From Oscillospiraceae bacterium (GTDB taxonomy: Bacteria; Bacillota; Clostridia; Saccharofermentanales; Saccharofermentanaceae), in NCBI GenBank assembly GCA_902789515.1, contig CADAOK010000017.1, positions 1 to 46,305 on the forward strand: DNA of 46,305 nt, given 5' to 3'. The position numbers and the translations under genes are program-made. The notes beneath the pieces are model-generated. The model saw nothing but the letters and a program-made list of their open reading frames with translations, did not search any database and was not told the DNA's origin. Below are positions 280 to 18,302 of the stretch, piece after piece (position 1 is the stretch's first letter; the number at the start of each line of letters is the position of its first letter).

Positions 280-290
280 CACTTATATCC

Positions 291-328
291 TTTGTCGTTT
301 TTGTCGCTGTTTTGCAGATGATTATCAC
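291..328 (+). promoter_or_regulatory. Tandem TTTGTCG boxes upstream of comEC (putative regulator site)
   Basis: TTTGTCGTT-TTTGTCGCT (9-bp period) followed by TTTTGCA..GATTATC. A similar arrangement lies at 15258-15319. Confidence 0.45.
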
Positions 329-352: not shown

Positions 353-2611
353 ATGAGAAGGAATTACGGAAACAATGCCGCATTGTTCGCGGAATTAAAG
401 CAGTTTCTTTGCCGGAGGCCGCTCGTGCTGCCTGCGGTTATGTCTGTCCTGATCTGCTGGTCAAGCTATTATTCAGGTTCAGCCCTGCCTGCACTATTGA
501 CCGCTTTGGCTGTCCTTGCTGCCGGTATCGCCTTTGAGCATGCCAGGCCGGCAAATCTTGCCGGTTTTGTGCTTTGTGCTGTTTTGCTCATCTATGCAGG
601 CTGCTCGATATCTGCTGCAGTTACGGCTTTTGCTGATCATGACGGAAACGGGATATATGTGGCCAGGGTCCTGGCAGAGGATTACAAAGCTGACGGTTCT
701 GCTGAATACAAGTGCCGTCTCGAAAACGGGGTTATTGCCAATCTGTATGTTTCCTGCGATATGAACAGATATTTCTGCACCGGTGATGTTCTCAGGGTAT
801 CAGGAAAGCTTGCTGAACCGGAAAAACCGGGTAATCCCGGTGAGTTTGATTTCCGGGAATATCTTCACAGACAGGGCATAACGTATGTGTTGTGGCCGGA
901 CAGTATTACCATGACAGGACATGGGAATGTGCTTGAAGCTTTGCCGGGTAATGCCGGATATGCGGTTTACCTGTTGAAACAGGAGGCCTTGGATGCGTTT
1001 TCCGGTAAAGATGATGAGATAAAAGCGCTTGCCGCAGCGGTCTTTACCGGAGATACGTCCCTGCTTGATTATTCGACGATACATGAATTCAAACTTACAA
1101 ACTGCTCACATCTTCTGGCGGTATCAGGCACCCATTTTGCCGGTTTTCTTCTTGCATTGCCTTATATCTTGAGGGCAATGCGGGTCAGGCAGAGGACGGC
1201 TGTCGTATTCTATGCATCTTTTGCATTTGTGATAGGGCTATTTTCGGGATGGAGTGATTCGGTATTCAGGGCACTTATCATGAGCACATGCTCTTTTGCG
1301 TCAAGAGACGGACCTTCTGCGATGTGCCTGGCTGTACTTATCATGACAGCTGTTGATCCTTTTGCTCCGCTCGGCACGGGTTTTCAGTTAAGTTTTGCTG
1401 CAGCCGGGTCATTGCTGTTTTTCCTTCCTGCGGTAAAAGACAGACTAATAAGGATGGGCATTGGCAGATCGTTTGCCGGGATTATCGCACCGGCGATAAC
1501 GGTATCTGTGGCCATGATCCCTTTTTCCGGATATACGGAGTTCCGTATGCATCCGGCTCTGATCGCAGTACAGATAGGTGCATCAATCATTGTTCAGGCA
1601 GCCTGCATTTTCCTTATACCGGGTTTTGTGTGCGGGATCAATTCTCCGGCAGTGTTTTGTCTCAGGTGTCTTGGCGGGATCACGCATTTCGGTGCGGCCG
1701 CAGTAAAGGCTTCCGGCATAAGATCAGCATCTCCGGATATATTGATACTCAGCTTAACCATGCTGCTCATACTTTTCCTGTTGCCGGAGTGCTTTATAAA
1801 AAGGCATTTTACCATTCCCGTCTGTATGATCGCGGCGTTATCCATAGGATTAAGCTCTGCTGAGATGCTCGTGAGACCAGCAGCACAGGTAATCTTTGCT
1901 GATGTCGGGCAGGGCGACTGCTGTCTGATAATAACGGATGATAAAACCTGTCTAATAGATGCTGGAGTATATGCCGAAGGGGAGACTACCGTGCAGGATA
2001 TCCTTGATCACTATGGGATAGCCGCAGTTGATTATGCTTTTATGAGCCACTGGGATACTGACCATGCAGGAGGAATAGCCGCTTTGTATAAAGCGGGCAG
2101 GATAAAGGCGTTATACACGGGTTTTACCGGCAAGGATCCGGAGGTGGAGGATTTCTATGAAGCCTTGCCGGATAAGGATTTCGAATCTGCATGTATTGAA
2201 GAGGTTGGTGCAGGCGAGGTGTTCTGCCTGAGCGAGGGTGTTACTTTGAAGGTGATCGCCCCCGTGAAAGCAGCCGGCGGAGGAAATGAGGACAGCCTTG
2301 TCATGACACTGGAAGCAGGAGGAAAGACCATTCTGTTTACGGGTGACATCGGTGCCGGTACGGAAGAAGAACTGTTGCAAGCAGGCATTCTTGCCGACTG
2401 TGACATCCTGAAGGTAGCCCATCACGGCTCGAAATACTCTACATCAGATGTTTTCCTGACCGCCGTTTCCCCCGAGACTGCCGTAATCTCAGTCGGAGCC
2501 GGCAACTTTTACGGACATCCGTCACCGGAATGCCTGCTAAGGCTTAAGAACGTAGGATGCACGGTAATGAGAACCGATACAGACGGAGCGGTAATCCTCA
2601 TGCTCGGATAA
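353..2611 (+). CDS. comEC: DNA internalization competence protein ComEC/Rec2
   Basis: NPGEFDFREYL, SHLLAVSGTH competence-domain motif, GFQLSF, multiple TM segments, C-terminal metallo-beta-lactamase domain (DVGQGD, SHWDTDHAGG, LFTGD, KVAHHGS, YGHP). Start uncertain because no clear SD precedes it. Confidence 0.95.
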   Translation: MRRNYGNNAALFAELKQFLCRRPLVLPAVMSVLICWSSYYSGSALPALLTALAVLAAGIAFEHARPANLAGFVLCAVLLIYAGCSISAAVTAFADHDGNGIYVARVLAEDYKADGSAEYKCRLENGVIANLYVSCDMNRYFCTGDVLRVSGKLAEPEKPGNPGEFDFREYLHRQGITYVLWPDSITMTGHGNVLEALPGNAGYAVYLLKQEALDAFSGKDDEIKALAAAVFTGDTSLLDYSTIHEFKLTNCSHLLAVSGTHFAGFLLALPYILRAMRVRQRTAVVFYASFAFVIGLFSGWSDSVFRALIMSTCSFASRDGPSAMCLAVLIMTAVDPFAPLGTGFQLSFAAAGSLLFFLPAVKDRLIRMGIGRSFAGIIAPAITVSVAMIPFSGYTEFRMHPALIAVQIGASIIVQAACIFLIPGFVCGINSPAVFCLRCLGGITHFGAAAVKASGIRSASPDILILSLTMLLILFLLPECFIKRHFTIPVCMIAALSIGLSSAEMLVRPAAQVIFADVGQGDCCLIITDDKTCLIDAGVYAEGETTVQDILDHYGIAAVDYAFMSHWDTDHAGGIAALYKAGRIKALYTGFTGKDPEVEDFYEALPDKDFESACIEEVGAGEVFCLSEGVTLKVIAPVKAAGGGNEDSLVMTLEAGGKTILFTGDIGAGTEEELLQAGILADCDILKVAHHGSKYSTSDVFLTAVSPETAVISVGAGNFYGHPSPECLLRLKNVGCTVMRTDTDGAVILMLG

Positions 2612-11676: not shown

Positions 11677-11717
11677 AGTCCCGTTTGTGAAAAATAACCC
11701 TTACGGGAGGTTTGTAT

Positions 11718-12749
11718 ATGAGTGATATCAAAGAATCCTTGAATTCGATACGCGAGGAATTTGATAAGGCATTGGAGCAGGTTAAGGACTCCCAGGCTGC
11801 TGAACAGCTCAGAGTATCTTTCCTTGGCAAGAAAGGTCAGCTTACCCAGGTTCTCAAGGGCATGGGCGGACTTACGGCTGAAGAGCGCCCCGTTATCGGA
11901 AAGATCGCCAACGATGTCCGTTCCCACATGGAATCAAGACTTGAAGAGATCGTTGCCAAGATCAAAGAAGAAGAGAAGGGCCACAAGCTCAGAAGAGAAG
12001 TCATCGACGTAACCATTCCTTCGGACAGGAAGGGTGCAGGCAGCCGTCATCCTCTTAACATGGCAATCAACGAGATCTGCGATATCTTCCTCGGACTCGG
12101 CTATTCAATTGCTGAAGGTCCTGAGGTCGAGTACGACAAGTATAATTTCGAGCTTCTCAGAATACCTGAGGGCCATCCGGCAAGAGATACACAGGACACT
12201 TTCTATTTCAACGATAAGGTCCTTCTCAGAACTCAGACTTCCGGTATGCAGATCCGTGTTATGGAGCAGCAGAAGCCGCCGCTCAAGGTCATCTGCCCGG
12301 GTAAGGTTTACCGTTCTGATGCTCTTGATGCAACACATTCACCTGTATTCCATCAGATCGAAGGCCTCGTTGTAGATAAGGGCGTTACGATGGGTGACCT
12401 GGTCGGTTCCCTGAGACTTTTCGCGAAGAAGCTCTTTGGTGAGAACACAGAGATCAGGCTCAGACCTCACCATTTCCCGTTTACGGAGCCTTCCGTTGAG
12501 GTTGACCTCACATGCTGGAAGTGCGGCGGTAAGGGCTGCAACGTCTGCAAGGGCGAGGGCTGGATCGAAGTTCTCGGTGCAGGTATGGTACATCCCGAGG
12601 TTCTTCAGAACTGCGGTATCGATCCCGAGGTTTACAGCGGATTCGCTTTCGGAATCGGCGTTGAGAGAACCGCCATGGGCAGATACGGAATTGATGACAT
12701 CAGACTTCTGTATGAGAACGATGTCAGATTCTTAGAGCAGTTCAAGTAA
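11718..12749 (+). CDS. pheS: Phenylalanyl-tRNA synthetase alpha subunit
   Basis: [35 protein letters not shown], CxxC...CxxC insert, [13 protein letters not shown] at 11718 lies 7 nt after the SD. Confidence 0.98.
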
Positions 12750-12769
12750 GGAAAGGCAGGCAATTAGCA

Positions 12770-15190
12770 ATGAAAGCACCGATAATCTGGCTTAAGGATT
12801 TTACGGATATAGATGTTGAACCCAAGGTATTGGGGGATGCAATGACAATGACGGGTTCCAAGGTAGAGGAACTCATTACTTCCGGCGATGACATCAACGG
12901 AGTATACACAGGTAAGGTTCTGGAGATGGCTGATCATCCCGATTCAGATCACCTCCATGTGCTCAAGGTTGATACAGGCAGGGACGACCTCGGAAGAGAC
13001 CTTCAGATCGTATGCGGAGCTCCGAATGTATATGTCGGCATGATCTGCCCCGTAGCTGTCGAGGGGGCAAGCCTTCCCGGCGGCGTTCACATCAAGAAGG
13101 GCAAGTTAAGAGGTGTGGAGAGCTTTGGAATGTGCTGCTCTGCAGAAGAACTTAACGTTCCTGCAGAAGGTCATCCGGGCGCTGAGGAATACGGTCTTTG
13201 GAATATGCCGCAGGATACTCCTCTCGGTGTTGATATCAAGGAGCTCCTCGGTCTCGGCAATACGACCATAGACTTTGAGATCACATCCAACAGGCCTGAC
13301 TGTTTCTCGATCGAAGGTCTGGGAAGAGAAGCTGCTCTTTCCATCGGCAAGGAATTCAAGCCCTGCACGCCTTCCATCAAGCAGGAAGGTTCACTCAATA
13401 CAGAAGATATCGTTAAGCTTCAGATAGATGCACCCGATCTCTGCTACCGTTACACAGGCAGACTGGTCGAGGATGTTAAGATCGGTCCTTCTCCGGCATG
13501 GATGGCTGAGAGGCTTACTGAAGCAGGCATGAGACCCATCAATAATATCGTTGATATCACTAACTATGTATGTCTTGAACTCGGACAGCCTATGCATGCT
13601 TTTGATCTGAACTATCTTGCAGGCAAGCACATCATTGTAAGAAGAGCTGCTGAAGGAGAAGTCATCAAGACTCTTGACGGCAATGACCATACACTGGACA
13701 GCTCCATGCTCGTTATTGCCGATGAGGAGAAGGCTTGTGCCATTGCAGGCGTCATGGGCGGTGAGAATTCAGAAGTCCTGCCCGAGACAACAACGATCCT
13801 CTTCGAGTCTGCTGTATTCAATGCAGTTTCCGTAAGAAGGACGGCAGTAAGCAACGGCCTCCGTACAGAGGCTTCCTCAAGATACGAGAAGGGACTTGAT
13901 CCCGAGAATGCTCTTAGGGCATTAGACAGGGCCTGTGAGCTTGTCGAAATGCTCGGCTGCGGTAAGGTATCCAAGGGTGTCGTAGACTGCTATCCGACAA
14001 AGCGCGAAGTAAAGCATATCGAGTTCAGACCTGCAAAGATCAACAGCTTCCTCGGCATCGAGGCTGAGGAGTCGTTCATGAGGGATATTCTCACAAAGCT
14101 CGGATGCTCTTTTGTTCAGGAGAACGGAAAGGAAGTCATAGTTCCTCCCACATACAGGCCTGACCTTGAGTCTGAGGCTGATATCTCTGAAGAAGTAGCA
14201 AGATTCTATGGCTACAACAAGATCGAGGCAACTCTTCTCTCCGGTAAGGAAACAACATTAGGCGGACGCACAAATGAGCAGAAGATCGTCGAGAAGATCC
14301 GCGATACACTTGTTTACTGCGGTTTCTATGAGGCTATCACATATTCATTCGAATCACCTTTAGATCTCGACAGGCTCCTGATTCCTGCTGACAGCATCCT
14401 GCGTAACCAGCTCAAGATCTCTAATCCTCTCGGTGACGATACATCTGTCATGAGAACAACAATGCTGCCTTCCATGCTGAAGATCGCTGCAAGAAATTAC
14501 AGCCGCGGCGTTGGAGAGGCAAAGGTTTTCGAGGTTGCATATGTATACCTGCCTTCAAGCGTTGAAGGTGAGCTTCCCGAGGAGAGAAGGACTCTCGCGG
14601 GATTCACATACGGCACAAAGGATGGTGCTGCGCTGTTCTATGATACAAAAGCTTCCATCGAGGAGCTCTTTAAGGTGCTCGGCATCAGGTCTTACGGCTT
14701 CGAGCCTCTGACAGATGATCCTTCATTCCATCCCGGCCGTACTGCGTCCATCATAGTTAACGGCAAGGTCTGCGGTAAGCTCGGCATCATCCATCCCGAT
14801 GTTGCAGCAGGCTTTGAGACACCTTCCGAGACATGCGCTTTCGAGATCTATGTACCTCAGCTCGTTGCAGCTTCAAAGAAGGACAGGGTCTACAAGCAGC
14901 TGCCCAAGTTCCCGGGTATCTCCAGAGACCTCGCAGTTACGACTGAGAGCAAGGTTACGGTTGCTGACATCATCAAGACTGCTAAATCTGCCGGCGGCAA
15001 GTACCTCCGCGATGTCAAGATGTTCGATGTATATACAGGCGATAAGCTCGGTGAAGGTCTTAAGTCAGTTGCCATCTCTCTGTCATTCAGGGCTGATGAC
15101 AAGACACTGTCTGATGATGACATCAAGAACGATATCGATAACATCATCAGCAAGCTCGAATCCAAGCTTGGCGCGAAGCTCAGAAGCTAA
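12770..15190 (+). CDS. pheT: Phenylalanyl-tRNA synthetase beta subunit
   Basis: QIVCGAPN, EITSNRPDC, RPINNIVDITNYV, FHPGRTA, KFPGISRDLA. Confidence 0.98.
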   Translation: MKAPIIWLKDFTDIDVEPKVLGDAMTMTGSKVEELITSGDDINGVYTGKVLEMADHPDSDHLHVLKVDTGRDDLGRDLQIVCGAPNVYVGMICPVAVEGASLPGGVHIKKGKLRGVESFGMCCSAEELNVPAEGHPGAEEYGLWNMPQDTPLGVDIKELLGLGNTTIDFEITSNRPDCFSIEGLGREAALSIGKEFKPCTPSIKQEGSLNTEDIVKLQIDAPDLCYRYTGRLVEDVKIGPSPAWMAERLTEAGMRPINNIVDITNYVCLELGQPMHAFDLNYLAGKHIIVRRAAEGEVIKTLDGNDHTLDSSMLVIADEEKACAIAGVMGGENSEVLPETTTILFESAVFNAVSVRRTAVSNGLRTEASSRYEKGLDPENALRALDRACELVEMLGCGKVSKGVVDCYPTKREVKHIEFRPAKINSFLGIEAEESFMRDILTKLGCSFVQENGKEVIVPPTYRPDLESEADISEEVARFYGYNKIEATLLSGKETTLGGRTNEQKIVEKIRDTLVYCGFYEAITYSFESPLDLDRLLIPADSILRNQLKISNPLGDDTSVMRTTMLPSMLKIAARNYSRGVGEAKVFEVAYVYLPSSVEGELPEERRTLAGFTYGTKDGAALFYDTKASIEELFKVLGIRSYGFEPLTDDPSFHPGRTASIIVNGKVCGKLGIIHPDVAAGFETPSETCAFEIYVPQLVAASKKDRVYKQLPKFPGISRDLAVTTESKVTVADIIKTAKSAGGKYLRDVKMFDVYTGDKLGEGLKSVAISLSFRADDKTLSDDDIKNDIDNIISKLESKLGAKLRS

Positions 15191-15230: not shown

Positions 15231-15260
15231 ATGAAGACGTCCTTTGGGGCGTCTTTATTT
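15231..15260 (+). terminator. Intrinsic terminator after pheT
   Basis: AAGACGTCC-TTTG-GGGCGTCTT stem-loop followed by TATTTT. Confidence 0.7.
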
Positions 15261-15319
15261 TGTCGGTTTTTGTCGGTTTTTGTCGGGTTTTTCGGGGGTG
15301 TTTGCATAGTAAGATTATC
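15257..15319 (+). repeat. Three tandem 10-bp units containing TTTTGTCGG in the pilin operon promoter
   Basis: ATTTTGTCGG TTTTTGTCGG TTTTTGTCGG GTTTTTCGG, then TGTTTGCA, a TAAGAT -10 candidate (15310-15315) and SD AAGGAGG (15325-15331). Confidence 0.7.
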
Positions 15320-15340: not shown

Positions 15341-15646
15341 ATGTCAACATTAGAGACGGCTTTTGCTTTTACGGTGATCATTACCTTCCTGACTTTCCTT
15401 ATAACAGGTCCTGAGGAACTTGTTTTGGACTGTATTGAGGATGTAAAGGCAGGAGATGAAGAGATTGGTTTCTTTATAGATGATTCCGGATTGATCGACA
15501 GTACCGATATTGGGGGCAACGTGTCATATAACACTTCTCCGGAAAAACTGTGCACATATGTTACAGGAATATCGGACAATTACCGGATCATATATGGAGC
15601 CGTAGCGTCAGGAGGTGCCGCAGATGAGACGGATTCACAGGAATAA
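15341..15646 (+). CDS. Small TadE-like/Flp-type minor pilin lacking a leader peptide
   Basis: Strong SD. The N-terminus MSTLETAFAFTVIITFLTFLI is a pilin hydrophobic helix with Glu at position 5. First gene of a pilin cluster. Confidence 0.65.
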   Translation: MSTLETAFAFTVIITFLTFLITGPEELVLDCIEDVKAGDEEIGFFIDDSGLIDSTDIGGNVSYNTSPEKLCTYVTGISDNYRIIYGAVASGGAADETDSQE

Positions 15647-16997
15647 AAGCGGTGCGATGACAATGTTTCTCGCGATTATCCTTTCAGCCCTGATATTGGT
15701 GGAATGCACTTTTGTACTCTTCGTCTGGGATCTGGATTACAGGATGGCATTTGACAGTGCTCTTAGGGCAGAAGTGGAAACTATCCTGGCGGAATATGAC
15801 AGGCAGCTGTTCGATACATACGGAATCTATGCCGTAACGCTGAATGATGTCGACGATGAAGTGTTCAGGAAGGCCATATCGACACATGGCTATACGGGTG
15901 ATTCGGATATTGAGATATACGGGGTAAAGGCACTTGGTGTTGATGATCTGAAAGCCGCTATCAGTGTTTATTACGCCAACCGTGCCGGAGGCATTTTGTT
16001 TGAGAATGCACTTGTTCAGTTTGAGGGATTGATGGAAGGGACCGGTGCCGGTGATGTGCTGGATGCTTTGAGGGAGTACACATCCAGTGATGCCGCCGGC
16101 TATCTCGAAGATCTTCTTACCGGGGCTTCATCAATTGCTGAATGGCTGGATGATGCAGAACAGTCCGGTGATGATTTATCTTCTGAGGATTTCCGTCAGG
16201 AGATATCCGACTTTGCCAAATATAAGAAGACCATAACGGCCGCAGACAATGATCTTGAAGATCTGGATATCGGTATCGATCTAACTGATCTGAGCTCTAT
16301 TGCTGAAGGTGCGGATAAGCTCATAGACCTTCAATACGGACTGGCTGATACGGCCATGATCGCAGCATTTCATCCGGCATGTGCTTATTATGCCGCCAAT
16401 AATTTTGACTGCTATCTCTCAAATGATAACGATCTTTCCATAAACGGGACTGATTTCTCAAGCATTCATGAAGGTAATCTGTACGACGCGGAATATATAA
16501 TGTGCGGTCTTGACGGAAGGGTAGGGGTTGCAGAGACAGCAGTGCTTGTGTTCACGGTCCTGTTCATCGTAAATGCAGTTGAGAATTTCGCTGATCCCGA
16601 TCTTGAAGCAACCCTTAACGGAATATCCACGGCAGTTTCCGCCATTGTCCTTGGCGTTACAGAAGGAATAGTCTACATAGATCCCGAGATACTGACAACA
16701 GTGATGATACTTATCAAGAGTGCGGCAGACAGTGTTGGCAGCCTGATCGATGTTCTCAACGGCGAGAAGATCGCACTGGTGGATTATGAAGGAACTGAAC
16801 TTGTTTATGTCGGATACAGGGACTTCCTGTTCCTGCTTATGTTCCTTGTCCCTGATGAAGATATGCTTACAAGAATGATCGAAGTCCTTAACAGAGACTT
16901 TGGAGAGTTGTATTCGGGCGTTGGAGCGACAGGTATCTACAGAGGTCAGCAGTATACACAGGAGAAGACTTATCAATTGTACAAGCAAGGAGGATGA
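15624..16997 (+). CDS. Tad-associated pseudopilin (DUF5702/TadG-like)
   Basis: Class III signal RRIHRNKSG|AMTMFLAIILSALILV, LAEYDRQLFDTYGIY, EYIMCG and YRDFL motifs as in clostridial Tad-locus proteins. ATG at 15624 follows GGAGG at 15611. Confidence 0.75.
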   Translation: MRRIHRNKSGAMTMFLAIILSALILVECTFVLFVWDLDYRMAFDSALRAEVETILAEYDRQLFDTYGIYAVTLNDVDDEVFRKAISTHGYTGDSDIEIYGVKALGVDDLKAAISVYYANRAGGILFENALVQFEGLMEGTGAGDVLDALREYTSSDAAGYLEDLLTGASSIAEWLDDAEQSGDDLSSEDFRQEISDFAKYKKTITAADNDLEDLDIGIDLTDLSSIAEGADKLIDLQYGLADTAMIAAFHPACAYYAANNFDCYLSNDNDLSINGTDFSSIHEGNLYDAEYIMCGLDGRVGVAETAVLVFTVLFIVNAVENFADPDLEATLNGISTAVSAIVLGVTEGIVYIDPEILTTVMILIKSAADSVGSLIDVLNGEKIALVDYEGTELVYVGYRDFLFLLMFLVPDEDMLTRMIEVLNRDFGELYSGVGATGIYRGQQYTQEKTYQLYKQGG

Positions 16998-16999
16998 TC

Positions 17000-17992
17000 A
17001 TGAAGAACAAACACGGTTCCGTAACAATCGAATCTGCTGTAGCTTTTACGGCGGTACTTGTTTTCCTGGCGGCAATCATCAGCGTCATCAATATTTACAG
17101 GACAGATATCCTCATGAGACGTGCGCAGGAACAGACCTGTGAGAAGGTTGCAATGCTCTGCCCGTTAACAGTCACTGCTTCAGATGTTTTTTCGACTGCT
17201 GTAAATGCTTTCCCGGACATCGGTATCGACGGAACGAACGGCGGAGAGGCGGTAACTTATGTGGCCAAACTGATTACCGGAGCGGATTTTGCCGGCGGCT
17301 ATACCATCGAGAATCTGGTTCTTGAGGGCGCGCTCGGAGGATACATGGCTAATGATATTGCTGAAGGGTACATTAGCCGTAACGGCGGTTCCGATTTTAT
17401 GATGCCTGACGATATCAACGTTACCTTCGAAGTGAATCCTGATAAGAGCATTATTGAAGTCAGCACGACATATTCGGTTCTTACGCTTGCCGGCAGATAT
17501 GAGAGGAGTATCTACAACATTATCCCGGTATACGGCAAAGGAGATCTGTTTCTGCTTGCTTCAGAAGAACAGAAGAAGGAAAACGATATCTGGAGTGAAG
17601 ATAATTTCACGCGTGGGGATTATTTCCGGGAAGAATACGGCGGCAATCTCCCGAAAATGTTTCCCGTAATAGATGCATATGAGGACGGGACGGCCACTTC
17701 AATAATGAGCATTGATCTGACGGCCCCCACATATGCTGATGAATCTGAGATACTTAAGAAAATAGGGGAGAATATTGACCAGTTATCCGGCTTTGAAGGA
17801 GCGGACAAAAATATCGGAGGAACGCAATACAGTATCGGCCCTGTAACCAAGCGTCAGCTGATCGTTATAATACCGTCTAATTCAAGCGATGAAGCCAAGG
17901 ATTCCGTATACGGGATGGTCAGTTATGCCGCATCAAACGGAATAAGCATGTCCGTTGAAGAATACGGCACCAGTCTTAAGTATTCAGAATAG
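17000..17992 (+). CDS. TadE-like pilin with C-terminal CdiA-CT (EC869-type) nuclease-like domain
   Basis: KNKHG|SVTIESAVAF prepilin motif. C-terminal IWS..F.RG...GGNLPKMFPVID.YEDG.ATSIMSIDLTAPTY...KRQLIVIIP. ATG at 17000 follows AGGAGG. Confidence 0.75.
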   Translation: MKNKHGSVTIESAVAFTAVLVFLAAIISVINIYRTDILMRRAQEQTCEKVAMLCPLTVTASDVFSTAVNAFPDIGIDGTNGGEAVTYVAKLITGADFAGGYTIENLVLEGALGGYMANDIAEGYISRNGGSDFMMPDDINVTFEVNPDKSIIEVSTTYSVLTLAGRYERSIYNIIPVYGKGDLFLLASEEQKKENDIWSEDNFTRGDYFREEYGGNLPKMFPVIDAYEDGTATSIMSIDLTAPTYADESEILKKIGENIDQLSGFEGADKNIGGTQYSIGPVTKRQLIVIIPSNSSDEAKDSVYGMVSYAASNGISMSVEEYGTSLKYSE

Positions 17993-18012
17993 TCTTTGGT
18001 AATTCCTTTTTA

Positions 18013-18041
18013 TTGTATTAAAATATGAAATGCGTTAATAT
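18013..18041 (+). promoter_or_regulatory. Sigma-A type promoter upstream of the small ORF-yerC-secA block
   Basis: TTGTAT (18013-18018), 17 bp, TAATAT (18036-18041), in an AT-rich intergenic stretch. Confidence 0.55.
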
Positions 18042-18068: not shown

Positions 18069-18302
18069 GTGAAACACAACAATCAGGTAAGGCGACCTGA
18101 ACTGGCGAATTCGGCAATTCTTACTGACAGGAATTCCGCGCTTTCGATTGGGGATACTTTGAGGAAAGCCAAGAGTGATCTTTTCTTTTCCAGGTGTCTG
18201 ATTGCAATACTAATTGTTCTGCTCATTACGACTGCCGCAGTAATGATCTATCTCGGGTATGTCCAGCAGTTGTTCAATTTCGTGACGAATGCTGTTAATT
18301 GA
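18069..18302 (+). CDS. Small single-pass membrane protein of unknown function
   Basis: GGAGG SD 8 nt before GTG, one hydrophobic segment LIAILIVLLITTAAVMIYLG, fills the gap between promoter and next gene. Confidence 0.65.
   Translation: MKHNNQVRRPELANSAILTDRNSALSIGDTLRKAKSDLFFSRCLIAILIVLLITTAAVMIYLGYVQQLFNFVTNAVN

Follow-up and report, generated by a model that had tools for sequence, protein, structure and literature searches.

A TadE-like minor pilin of a clostridial bacterium carries a CdiA-CT-type nuclease fold and may form the tip of a competence pilus

In the 46,305-nucleotide stretch of DNA analyzed here (the window), which comes from a rumen bacterium, one gene encodes a protein in which a TadE-like minor pilin is joined to a PD-(D/E)xK domain of the CdiA-CT EC869/TA271 type. 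Together with the two pilins encoded upstream, this protein may well form the tip of a clostridial Tad competence pilus on which the domain would hold incoming DNA uncut, a reading to which we give an even chance. A nuclease fold with replaced cutting residues and a control signal common with DNA-uptake genes suggest such a non-cutting, DNA-catching tip; both the lack of catalysis and the co-induction of the pilus and uptake genes are predicted from sequence. The target gene comprises the following features:
17000..17992, + strand: target open reading frame (330 aa), TadE-like minor pilin with a nuclease-fold domain
17000..17581, + strand: N-terminal part of the target (residues 1-194), with prepilin leader, hydrophobic helix, and pilin body
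17582..17992, + strand: CdiA-CT EC869/TA271-like PD-(D/E)xK domain of the target, with the columns R210, D225, S234, and M236

The translated target begins with MKNKHG↓SVTIE and continues with a hydrophobic helix, indicating a class III signal, and residues G6 and E11 were present without exception in the aligned close homologues (109/109), in agreement with the prepilin start proposed in the first-pass annotation. The Pfam TadE match was weak in the target itself (E 0.076, below the cut-off) and above the cut-off in the orthologues L088 and L096. The prepilin signal, the TadE matches of the orthologues, and the Tad gene context described below uphold the earlier assignment as a Tad minor pilin.

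The C-terminal part (residues 214-319) matched the Pfam family PF21111 (CDI_toxin_EC869_like) with 41.2 bits against a cut-off of 27 (E 2e-10). In phmmer searches, the target matched the CdiA-CT chains 4G6U (E 2e-5) and 4ZQU (E 8e-4), and the profile of the target family matched 4G6U with an E value of 1e-12. The AlphaFold2 model had a mean pLDDT of 74.5, with values of 83-93 across the nuclease-fold domain, and matched 4G6U both by Foldseek (E 7e-8) and by VIA-align (Z 16.7, rmsd 1.8 Å over 127 residues; next unrelated row, Z 7.2); structural alignment with 4ZQU, the YPIII DNase toxin, gave a Z of 14.8. The CdiA-CT/PD-(D/E)xK fold previously suggested for 17582-17992 was thus confirmed. The fold and the motifs W..RG, P..FP, S.D, Y, and P are common to the target, CdiA-CT EC869-o11/TA271 and YPIII (4G6U, 4ZQU), and the Rhs toxins that have this domain. 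The target has no CdiA/Rhs delivery stalk, and the region N-terminal of the toxin-type domain is the prepilin segment and pilin body. Longer fused forms were not found among 359 candidates (proteins of 579-2000 aa retrieved with query residues 195-330), which is weak evidence. Apparent DUF5702-target fusions of 800 aa most likely arose from translation past stop codons and are not claimed as fusions.

The catalytic site in CdiA-CT, a Zn-dependent DNase, is described as E177, D198, S209, and K211 (PMC9086364). In the phmmer alignment, D225 (17672), S234 (17699), and M236 (17705) of the target correspond to D198, S209, and K211, a mapping that uses a +5 numbering offset fitted to the D/S/K spacing. 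R210 (17627) falls in the E177 column, as mapped indirectly via the family alignment, and the structural alignment, judged by its end points, agrees with this position. The catalytic E-D-S-K reads R-D-S-M in the target, which supports a disarmed active site with Glu replaced by Arg and Lys by Met.

The extent of this replacement was assessed in a family profile search of 1.84 billion representatives, which returned 2077 matches at E <= 0.001; the best 150 of the 2077 were analyzed. The domain alignment comprised 156 domains: 134 with a prepilin start, 7 from Rhs-type controls, and 15 that were fragmentary or could not be classified (a domain-less protein and one of the 150 are omitted). The combination E+D+K was complete in 0/134 pilin-fused representatives from the best 150 matches, versus 67/88 non-pilin relatives, a comparison that is biased in that relatives enter the control search through exact word matches that include the catalytic motifs and the pilin-fused set is ranked by a profile of the target's own lineage. 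The non-pilin relatives had Asp, Ser, and Lys in 88/88 and Glu in 67/88. Among the 134, the Glu column held Arg in 110 and Glu in 4, the Asp column was mostly Ala or Ser with Asp in 16, and the Lys column held Lys in 70 and Arg in 25. The earlier statement that the Asp is kept and the Lys lost describes the lineage of the target (D225 and M236 in the target itself) and does not extend to the family. Complete E+D+K was also found in none of 45 related Saccharofermentans-type genomic loci; in the close homologues of the target, Asp was present in 100/109 and Arg occupied the Lys column in 67. Among the 57 distinct genome-derived pilin fusions with an aligned domain, taken from the loci fetched, Glu and Asp occurred together in 11 and all four residues in one, L099. 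Loss of the triad across Clostridia, a point that the first-pass annotation had proposed to check, holds for the 134 representatives among the best 150 matches but not for one genus that reads E-D-S-K.

Other cleft positions were strongly conserved in the pilin fusions (W198 99%, N202 93%, R205 100%, R210 82%, K/R236 71%, and D239 98%), and G206, S237, and Y245 were also kept; N294 and a C-terminal G.S.RY are conserved features specific to the pilin-fused domains. It is quite improbable that the domain retains a weak or nicking nuclease activity with which incoming DNA would be trimmed on the pilus tip; for the clade with the intact site, such trimming is likely. D225 and S234 are kept, with Asp and the Lys-column Arg frequent in close homologues, the E-D-S-K genus carries its domain in the same gene slot, and PD-(D/E)xK sites are described as tolerating change, with Lys replaced by His in one CdiA-CT (PMC9086364). 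Against this, the helix Glu and the Lys are both replaced, the residues in the active-site columns vary freely, and none of the 45 loci or of the 134 representatives has E+D+K.

In one clostridial genus (L099:3368-4606 in G180, L138-L142, and L151-L155), this pilin fusion lies inside a Tad operon and its E-D-S-K site is intact. The fusion was present in 6/8 genomes of this genus and on 5 metagenome contigs; all 11 sequences (10 distinct) read E-D-S-K, and an A24 prepilin peptidase was the next gene in all 10 distinct loci. These proteins are candidates for an active DNase on a pilus tip.

The gene 3' of the target varies by family (the 77-aa membrane protein, an A24 peptidase, secA, a gyrase-like gene, and others). 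The first-pass annotation had noted that no immunity-type ORF follows and had taken this as a sign of disarming. The observation stands, the next gene encoding a membrane protein, but its use as a sign of disarming does not: the missing immunity gene says nothing on disarming because the intact-site members also have none, the A24 prepilin peptidase taking its place. An exported nuclease would need no cytoplasmic immunity protein, and the absence of an immunity gene would therefore be uninformative in this respect. The 77-aa protein (18069-18302) is a single-helix membrane protein of no known family, found in 44/45 Saccharofermentans-type loci; it was considered and rejected as an immunity protein or Flp pilin, as it has no Pfam match at the cut-off and occurs only in Saccharofermentans-type loci. 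The promoter of its own that had been ascribed to this gene was not recovered: the only sigma70-like match (17996-18024) does not exceed chance level.

That the domain is an antibacterial toxin delivered on contact by the Tad pilus is highly improbable. The fold derives from CdiA/Rhs toxins, and contact killing by Tad pili has been described in Myxococcus (PMC12075869); however, the domain has lost the catalytic residues, it is kept in one gene slot by vertical descent rather than exchanged, and there is no conserved downstream partner, whereas the Rhs controls L105 and L114 have similar 174-184-aa ORFs starting 13-15 bp downstream. The target differs from the CdiA/Rhs toxins as a membrane-anchored pilin fusion with replaced E177 and K211 equivalents, no immunity gene, and a place in a pilus gene slot. 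The domain is a PF21111 member and, judged by its residues, immunity gene, and stalk, would not qualify as an active CdiA/Rhs toxin.

Trees of 91 and 90 rows, both unrooted, split the pilin-fused from the toxin domains cleanly (99; 95/83), with the intact clade nearest the toxin domains. When the four catalytic columns were left out, this split was lost, and a quick tree needed two changes. A single origin of the fusion is at best compatible with the trees, and the direction would be from toxin to pilin. Outside Clostridia, PF21111 was matched in 2/300 sampled genomes of the phylum, one with Rhs toxins and one with a sub-threshold match in an unrelated gene.

The target is preceded by two further pilin genes:
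15341..15646, + strand: small TadE-like minor pilin (101 aa), leaderless, with Glu at position 5
15615..16997, + strand: TadG-like DUF5702 large pilin, KSG↓AMTMF, without E5; pilin core plus large helical insert

The small pilin gave no Pfam match; its E5 was found without exception in 39 rows, and its position is that of the TadE genes in complete Tad operons. The Glu is residue 5 counted from the start Met or, in relatives, from the Gly that follows Met removal. Since this pilin has no leader peptide, it may not need prepilin peptidase. PF18960 was matched weakly by the DUF5702 pilin of the host and strongly by an orthologue; its fold search gave middling pilin-fold matches (best Z 6.6), and a literature search for DUF5702 returned no papers.

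The three pilins were predicted together with alignments. The co-fold reached a score of 0.72, compared with 0.00 for the best of three controls; this mark is met by 116/157 solved complexes and 2/215 mismatched pairs and is a rough guide for a three-chain job. Contact agreement between runs was at least 91%, and the pLDDT of the partners was at least 74. The confident interface of the target comprised residues 8-179, with the DUF5702 pilin in contact with the target, indicating that the target is predicted to bind within a three-pilin complex; the score may also reflect likeness to solved minor-pilin complexes. Residues 195-330, the nuclease-fold domain, were not among the confident contacts, which fits a free domain but is no proof of one.

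The net charge of these proteins was calculated in the host lineage and amounted to -13 for the nuclease-fold domain, -11 for the pilin body, -52 for the DUF5702 pilin, and -15 for the small pilin. The caveat about an acidic domain raised earlier is thus warranted, and charge is the main objection to a DNA grip and argues for caution on the receptor role. Across the family, the nuclease-fold domain is near neutral (median net charge -0.5). The target cleft is less basic than that of most members, with Met at K236 and D225 in a position where it could pair with R210. The DNA-binding domain of the host ComEA is itself acidic (-5, vs -2 to +7 in 14 other genomes), which softens the objection and leaves it standing.

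The strong acidity of the domain in the host lineage speaks for another reading, in which the Tad pilus does serve competence, DNA is caught by the Flp filament or by the DUF5702 pilin, and the dead domain acts as a cap with a structural or protein-docking role. We regard this as unlikely, although the DUF5702 pilin might take the place of the target as DNA receptor: it has no E5 and a large helical insert, as expected of the topmost tip subunit, a TadG-like subunit of Myxococcus is described as bearing a variable tip domain (PMC12075869), and in the related TadE pilins of the Tad loci L135 and L136 no nuclease domain was detected. On the other hand, the former substrate cleft is where conservation is concentrated, its metal site now bearing an Arg, and the DUF5702 pilin is more acidic still.

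The gene context was compared across genomes. Of the genomic loci returned for close homologues of the target, 45/46 were Saccharofermentans-type, with a conserved arrangement in which the small pilin is followed by the DUF5702 pilin, the target, the 77-aa membrane protein, a TrpR-like gene, and secA. The family profile matched 92/301 Clostridia genomes, many of the weaker matches covering only the TadE part. In several families, the target gene lies within a complete Tad operon, as in L088-L090 (TadZ-like, TadA, TadB, TadC, Flp1, TadE, DUF5702, target, A24 peptidase, and DUF6382-FHA); in others, the host included, the pilin trio stands as a unit of its own. The host genome has its Tad core on contig C91, two A24 peptidases, and two type IVa pilus loci on contigs C13 and C1, and TadA was present in 22/22 chosen carrier genomes. 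The Tad platform of the host is a single 525-aa protein (C91:7042-8619 of G000), and relatives have separate TadB and TadC genes. Widespread tad operons in Clostridia have been described (PMC3244431); the word "nuclease" does not appear in the main text of that paper. As a separate observation, the identity of pheS/pheT to those at 11712-15190 is only about 50% and 38% in many same-genus loci among L005-L035, versus 72-99% in others, and some same-genus loci in this set have no pheS/pheT at this position; divergence and absence suggest replacement of the phenylalanyl-tRNA synthetase genes.

Two repeat arrays were found in the window:
15258..15296, + strand: tandem 10-bp direct-repeat array with the unit TTTTGTCGGN in 3-4 copies, before the pilin trio; predicted activator site
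290..320, + strand: second repeat array, before comEC (score 29.6)
353..2611, + strand: comEC (DUF4131, Competence, and metallo-beta-lactamase domains), behind the array at 290..320

In the host genome, arrays of nearly the same sequence lie upstream of the Tad core, comEA, comEC, comM-dprA, and recA. With a hand-weighted scorer for three copies and a threshold of 27 (below 24, real and control counts merge), the 1.93-Mb host genome contained 9 sites scoring at least 27, all intergenic, and the reversed genome contained 0. The sites besides those in the window are C91:10728, C8:12607, C24:17608, C158:6250, C60:3363, C71:6512, and C151:142. Six of the nine precede the pilin trio, Tad core, comEC, recA, comEA, and comM-dprA (identities by Pfam; the sites at comEA and comM-dprA span 99-bp contig overlaps), and three precede genes of no assigned function. 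The array was absent from the type IVa loci, where six upstream regions scored 8.8-15.6 (vs 35.9-38.4), and from the scored prepilin peptidase gene on contig C67. In related loci, an array scoring at least 27 preceded the small pilin in 35/44, with 0 in five control sets of neighboring genes; this count is circular because the scorer weights came from those loci, and the competence-gene matches are independent of it. An exact-pattern search in relatives, whose figures refer to the loci listed at 30 per search, found the array at all five of tad, pilin trio, comEC, comM, and recA in G268, at at least four of them in G062, and at at least three in G171; G119 had it at least at tad, comEC, and recA, and G029 at least at comEA, comM, and the pilin trio. 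The competence and Tad promoters of the 11 other clostridial families sampled gave no array with this scorer (scores up to 23, except 26.1 at the pilin trio of G184), nor was it recovered with the same scorer in G092, of the same order as the host, or in G290, so the competence link is supported for two families only. These results suggest that the array defines a likely competence regulon in the host's family and a sister family, and the previously proposed link of the target to competence gains weight from this motif.

Alternatively, the pilus might mainly attach cells, with the domain as an adhesin that binds a different anionic ligand (polysaccharide of plants or cell walls, teichoic acid, or biofilm eDNA), which we consider improbable. 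Adhesion is a classical property of Tad pili (PMC6668835), DNA uptake could be served by the two type IVa loci of the host, and the array was not seen in most clostridial families sampled; the array that the pilin trio and Tad core have in common with comEA, comEC, comM-dprA, and recA, and that the type IVa loci lack, argues against it.

The array unit resembles the Spo0A box. A 178-aa protein on host contig C32 (L158:1246-1782) has Spo0A_C as its sole Pfam match and no detected receiver domain; an array lies upstream of its homologue in G029 and none upstream of the host's own copy. This receiver-less protein is a candidate activator of the array regulon. Two proteins of about 260 aa (L319:190-963 and L320:257-1039, on host contigs C71 and C151) lie behind arrays and have no Pfam match; their family has homologues in G062, G171, G268, and G119, a nuclease-like PDF...E motif was seen by eye, and the Atlas matches were hypothetical Bacillota clusters. 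A 192-aa protein without a Pfam match (L318:1277-1852, host contig C60) lies behind a top-scoring array, and in G029 a strong array (34.0) precedes a gene identified by eye as ParA/Soj-like (L190).

If the target indeed belongs to a DNA-catching tip, one activator, possibly the receiver-less Spo0A-C-domain protein, would turn on the pilus and uptake genes together. Prepilin peptidase would cut after G6 of the target, and the trio would cap the Flp pilus. The old DNA-binding cleft, with its metal-binding carboxylate changed to Arg beside the invariant R205, would grip the phosphate backbone, and retraction by the TadA motor would hand the DNA to ComEA/ComEC and then to DprA/RecA/ComM. A wider scenario, doubtful when all of its parts are taken jointly, would have an ancestral clostridium place a polymorphic-toxin DNase on a Tad minor pilin that stayed active in one genus and became a non-cutting DNA receptor in most lineages, the host's included; the Tad pilus would then be the chief pilus for competence in many Clostridia, not recognised as such until now, and a receiver-less Spo0A-type regulator would turn it on in the host's order.

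Neisseria ComP and Legionella FimT are minor pilin DNA receptors of type IVa pili. To our knowledge, none of the pilin DNA receptors ComZ, ComP, and FimT has a nuclease fold. Thermus ComZ is described as a tip minor pilin that acts as DNA receptor (PMC6561018), a role that can be likened to that proposed for the target, and it differs in belonging to a type IVa pilus and in having a beta-solenoid insert. For Tad pili, tad genes are reported to be required for transformation in Micrococcus luteus (PMC4322843), Tad is also tied to DNA uptake in Micrococcus by PMC6668835, and a Tad motor mutant of Liberibacter crescens is reported to have reduced DNA uptake (PMC8513845), a tie like that proposed for the target. 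The Tad genes of M. luteus are split over two clusters, as in the host (PMC4322843). The abstracts on M. luteus and L. crescens, which belong to other phyla, name no DNA receptor, and the link of the target to uptake comes from the promoter motif alone. The Myxococcus KilLMN system resembles the target trio in its three minor pilin genes, predicted heteromeric tip, and variable extra domain (PMC12075869). As that source describes it, the target differs in that its extra domain is of the toxin-nuclease fold and sits on an E5-bearing TadE-like pilin rather than the TadG-like one, and in that its locus is tied to competence, not predation. Titles and the beginnings of abstracts, with subscription journals and supplements outside the scope, contained no description of a pilin-nuclease fusion or of the array, and the fusion is likely undescribed so far. 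A DNA receptor of a Tad pilus is not named in the Tad literature considered.

Intact, half-lost, and fully switched active sites of the fusion, as judged from their residues, all appear to be extant in nature. If the proposed role is true, these findings would identify, for a group of rumen and gut Clostridia, the pilus used in uptake, a candidate for the DNA receptor, and a promoter signature of natural competence. The gene exchange of these bacteria would become testable, with a route to genetic tools, and the target would clearly exemplify the reuse of a domain from an interbacterial weapon in DNA uptake.
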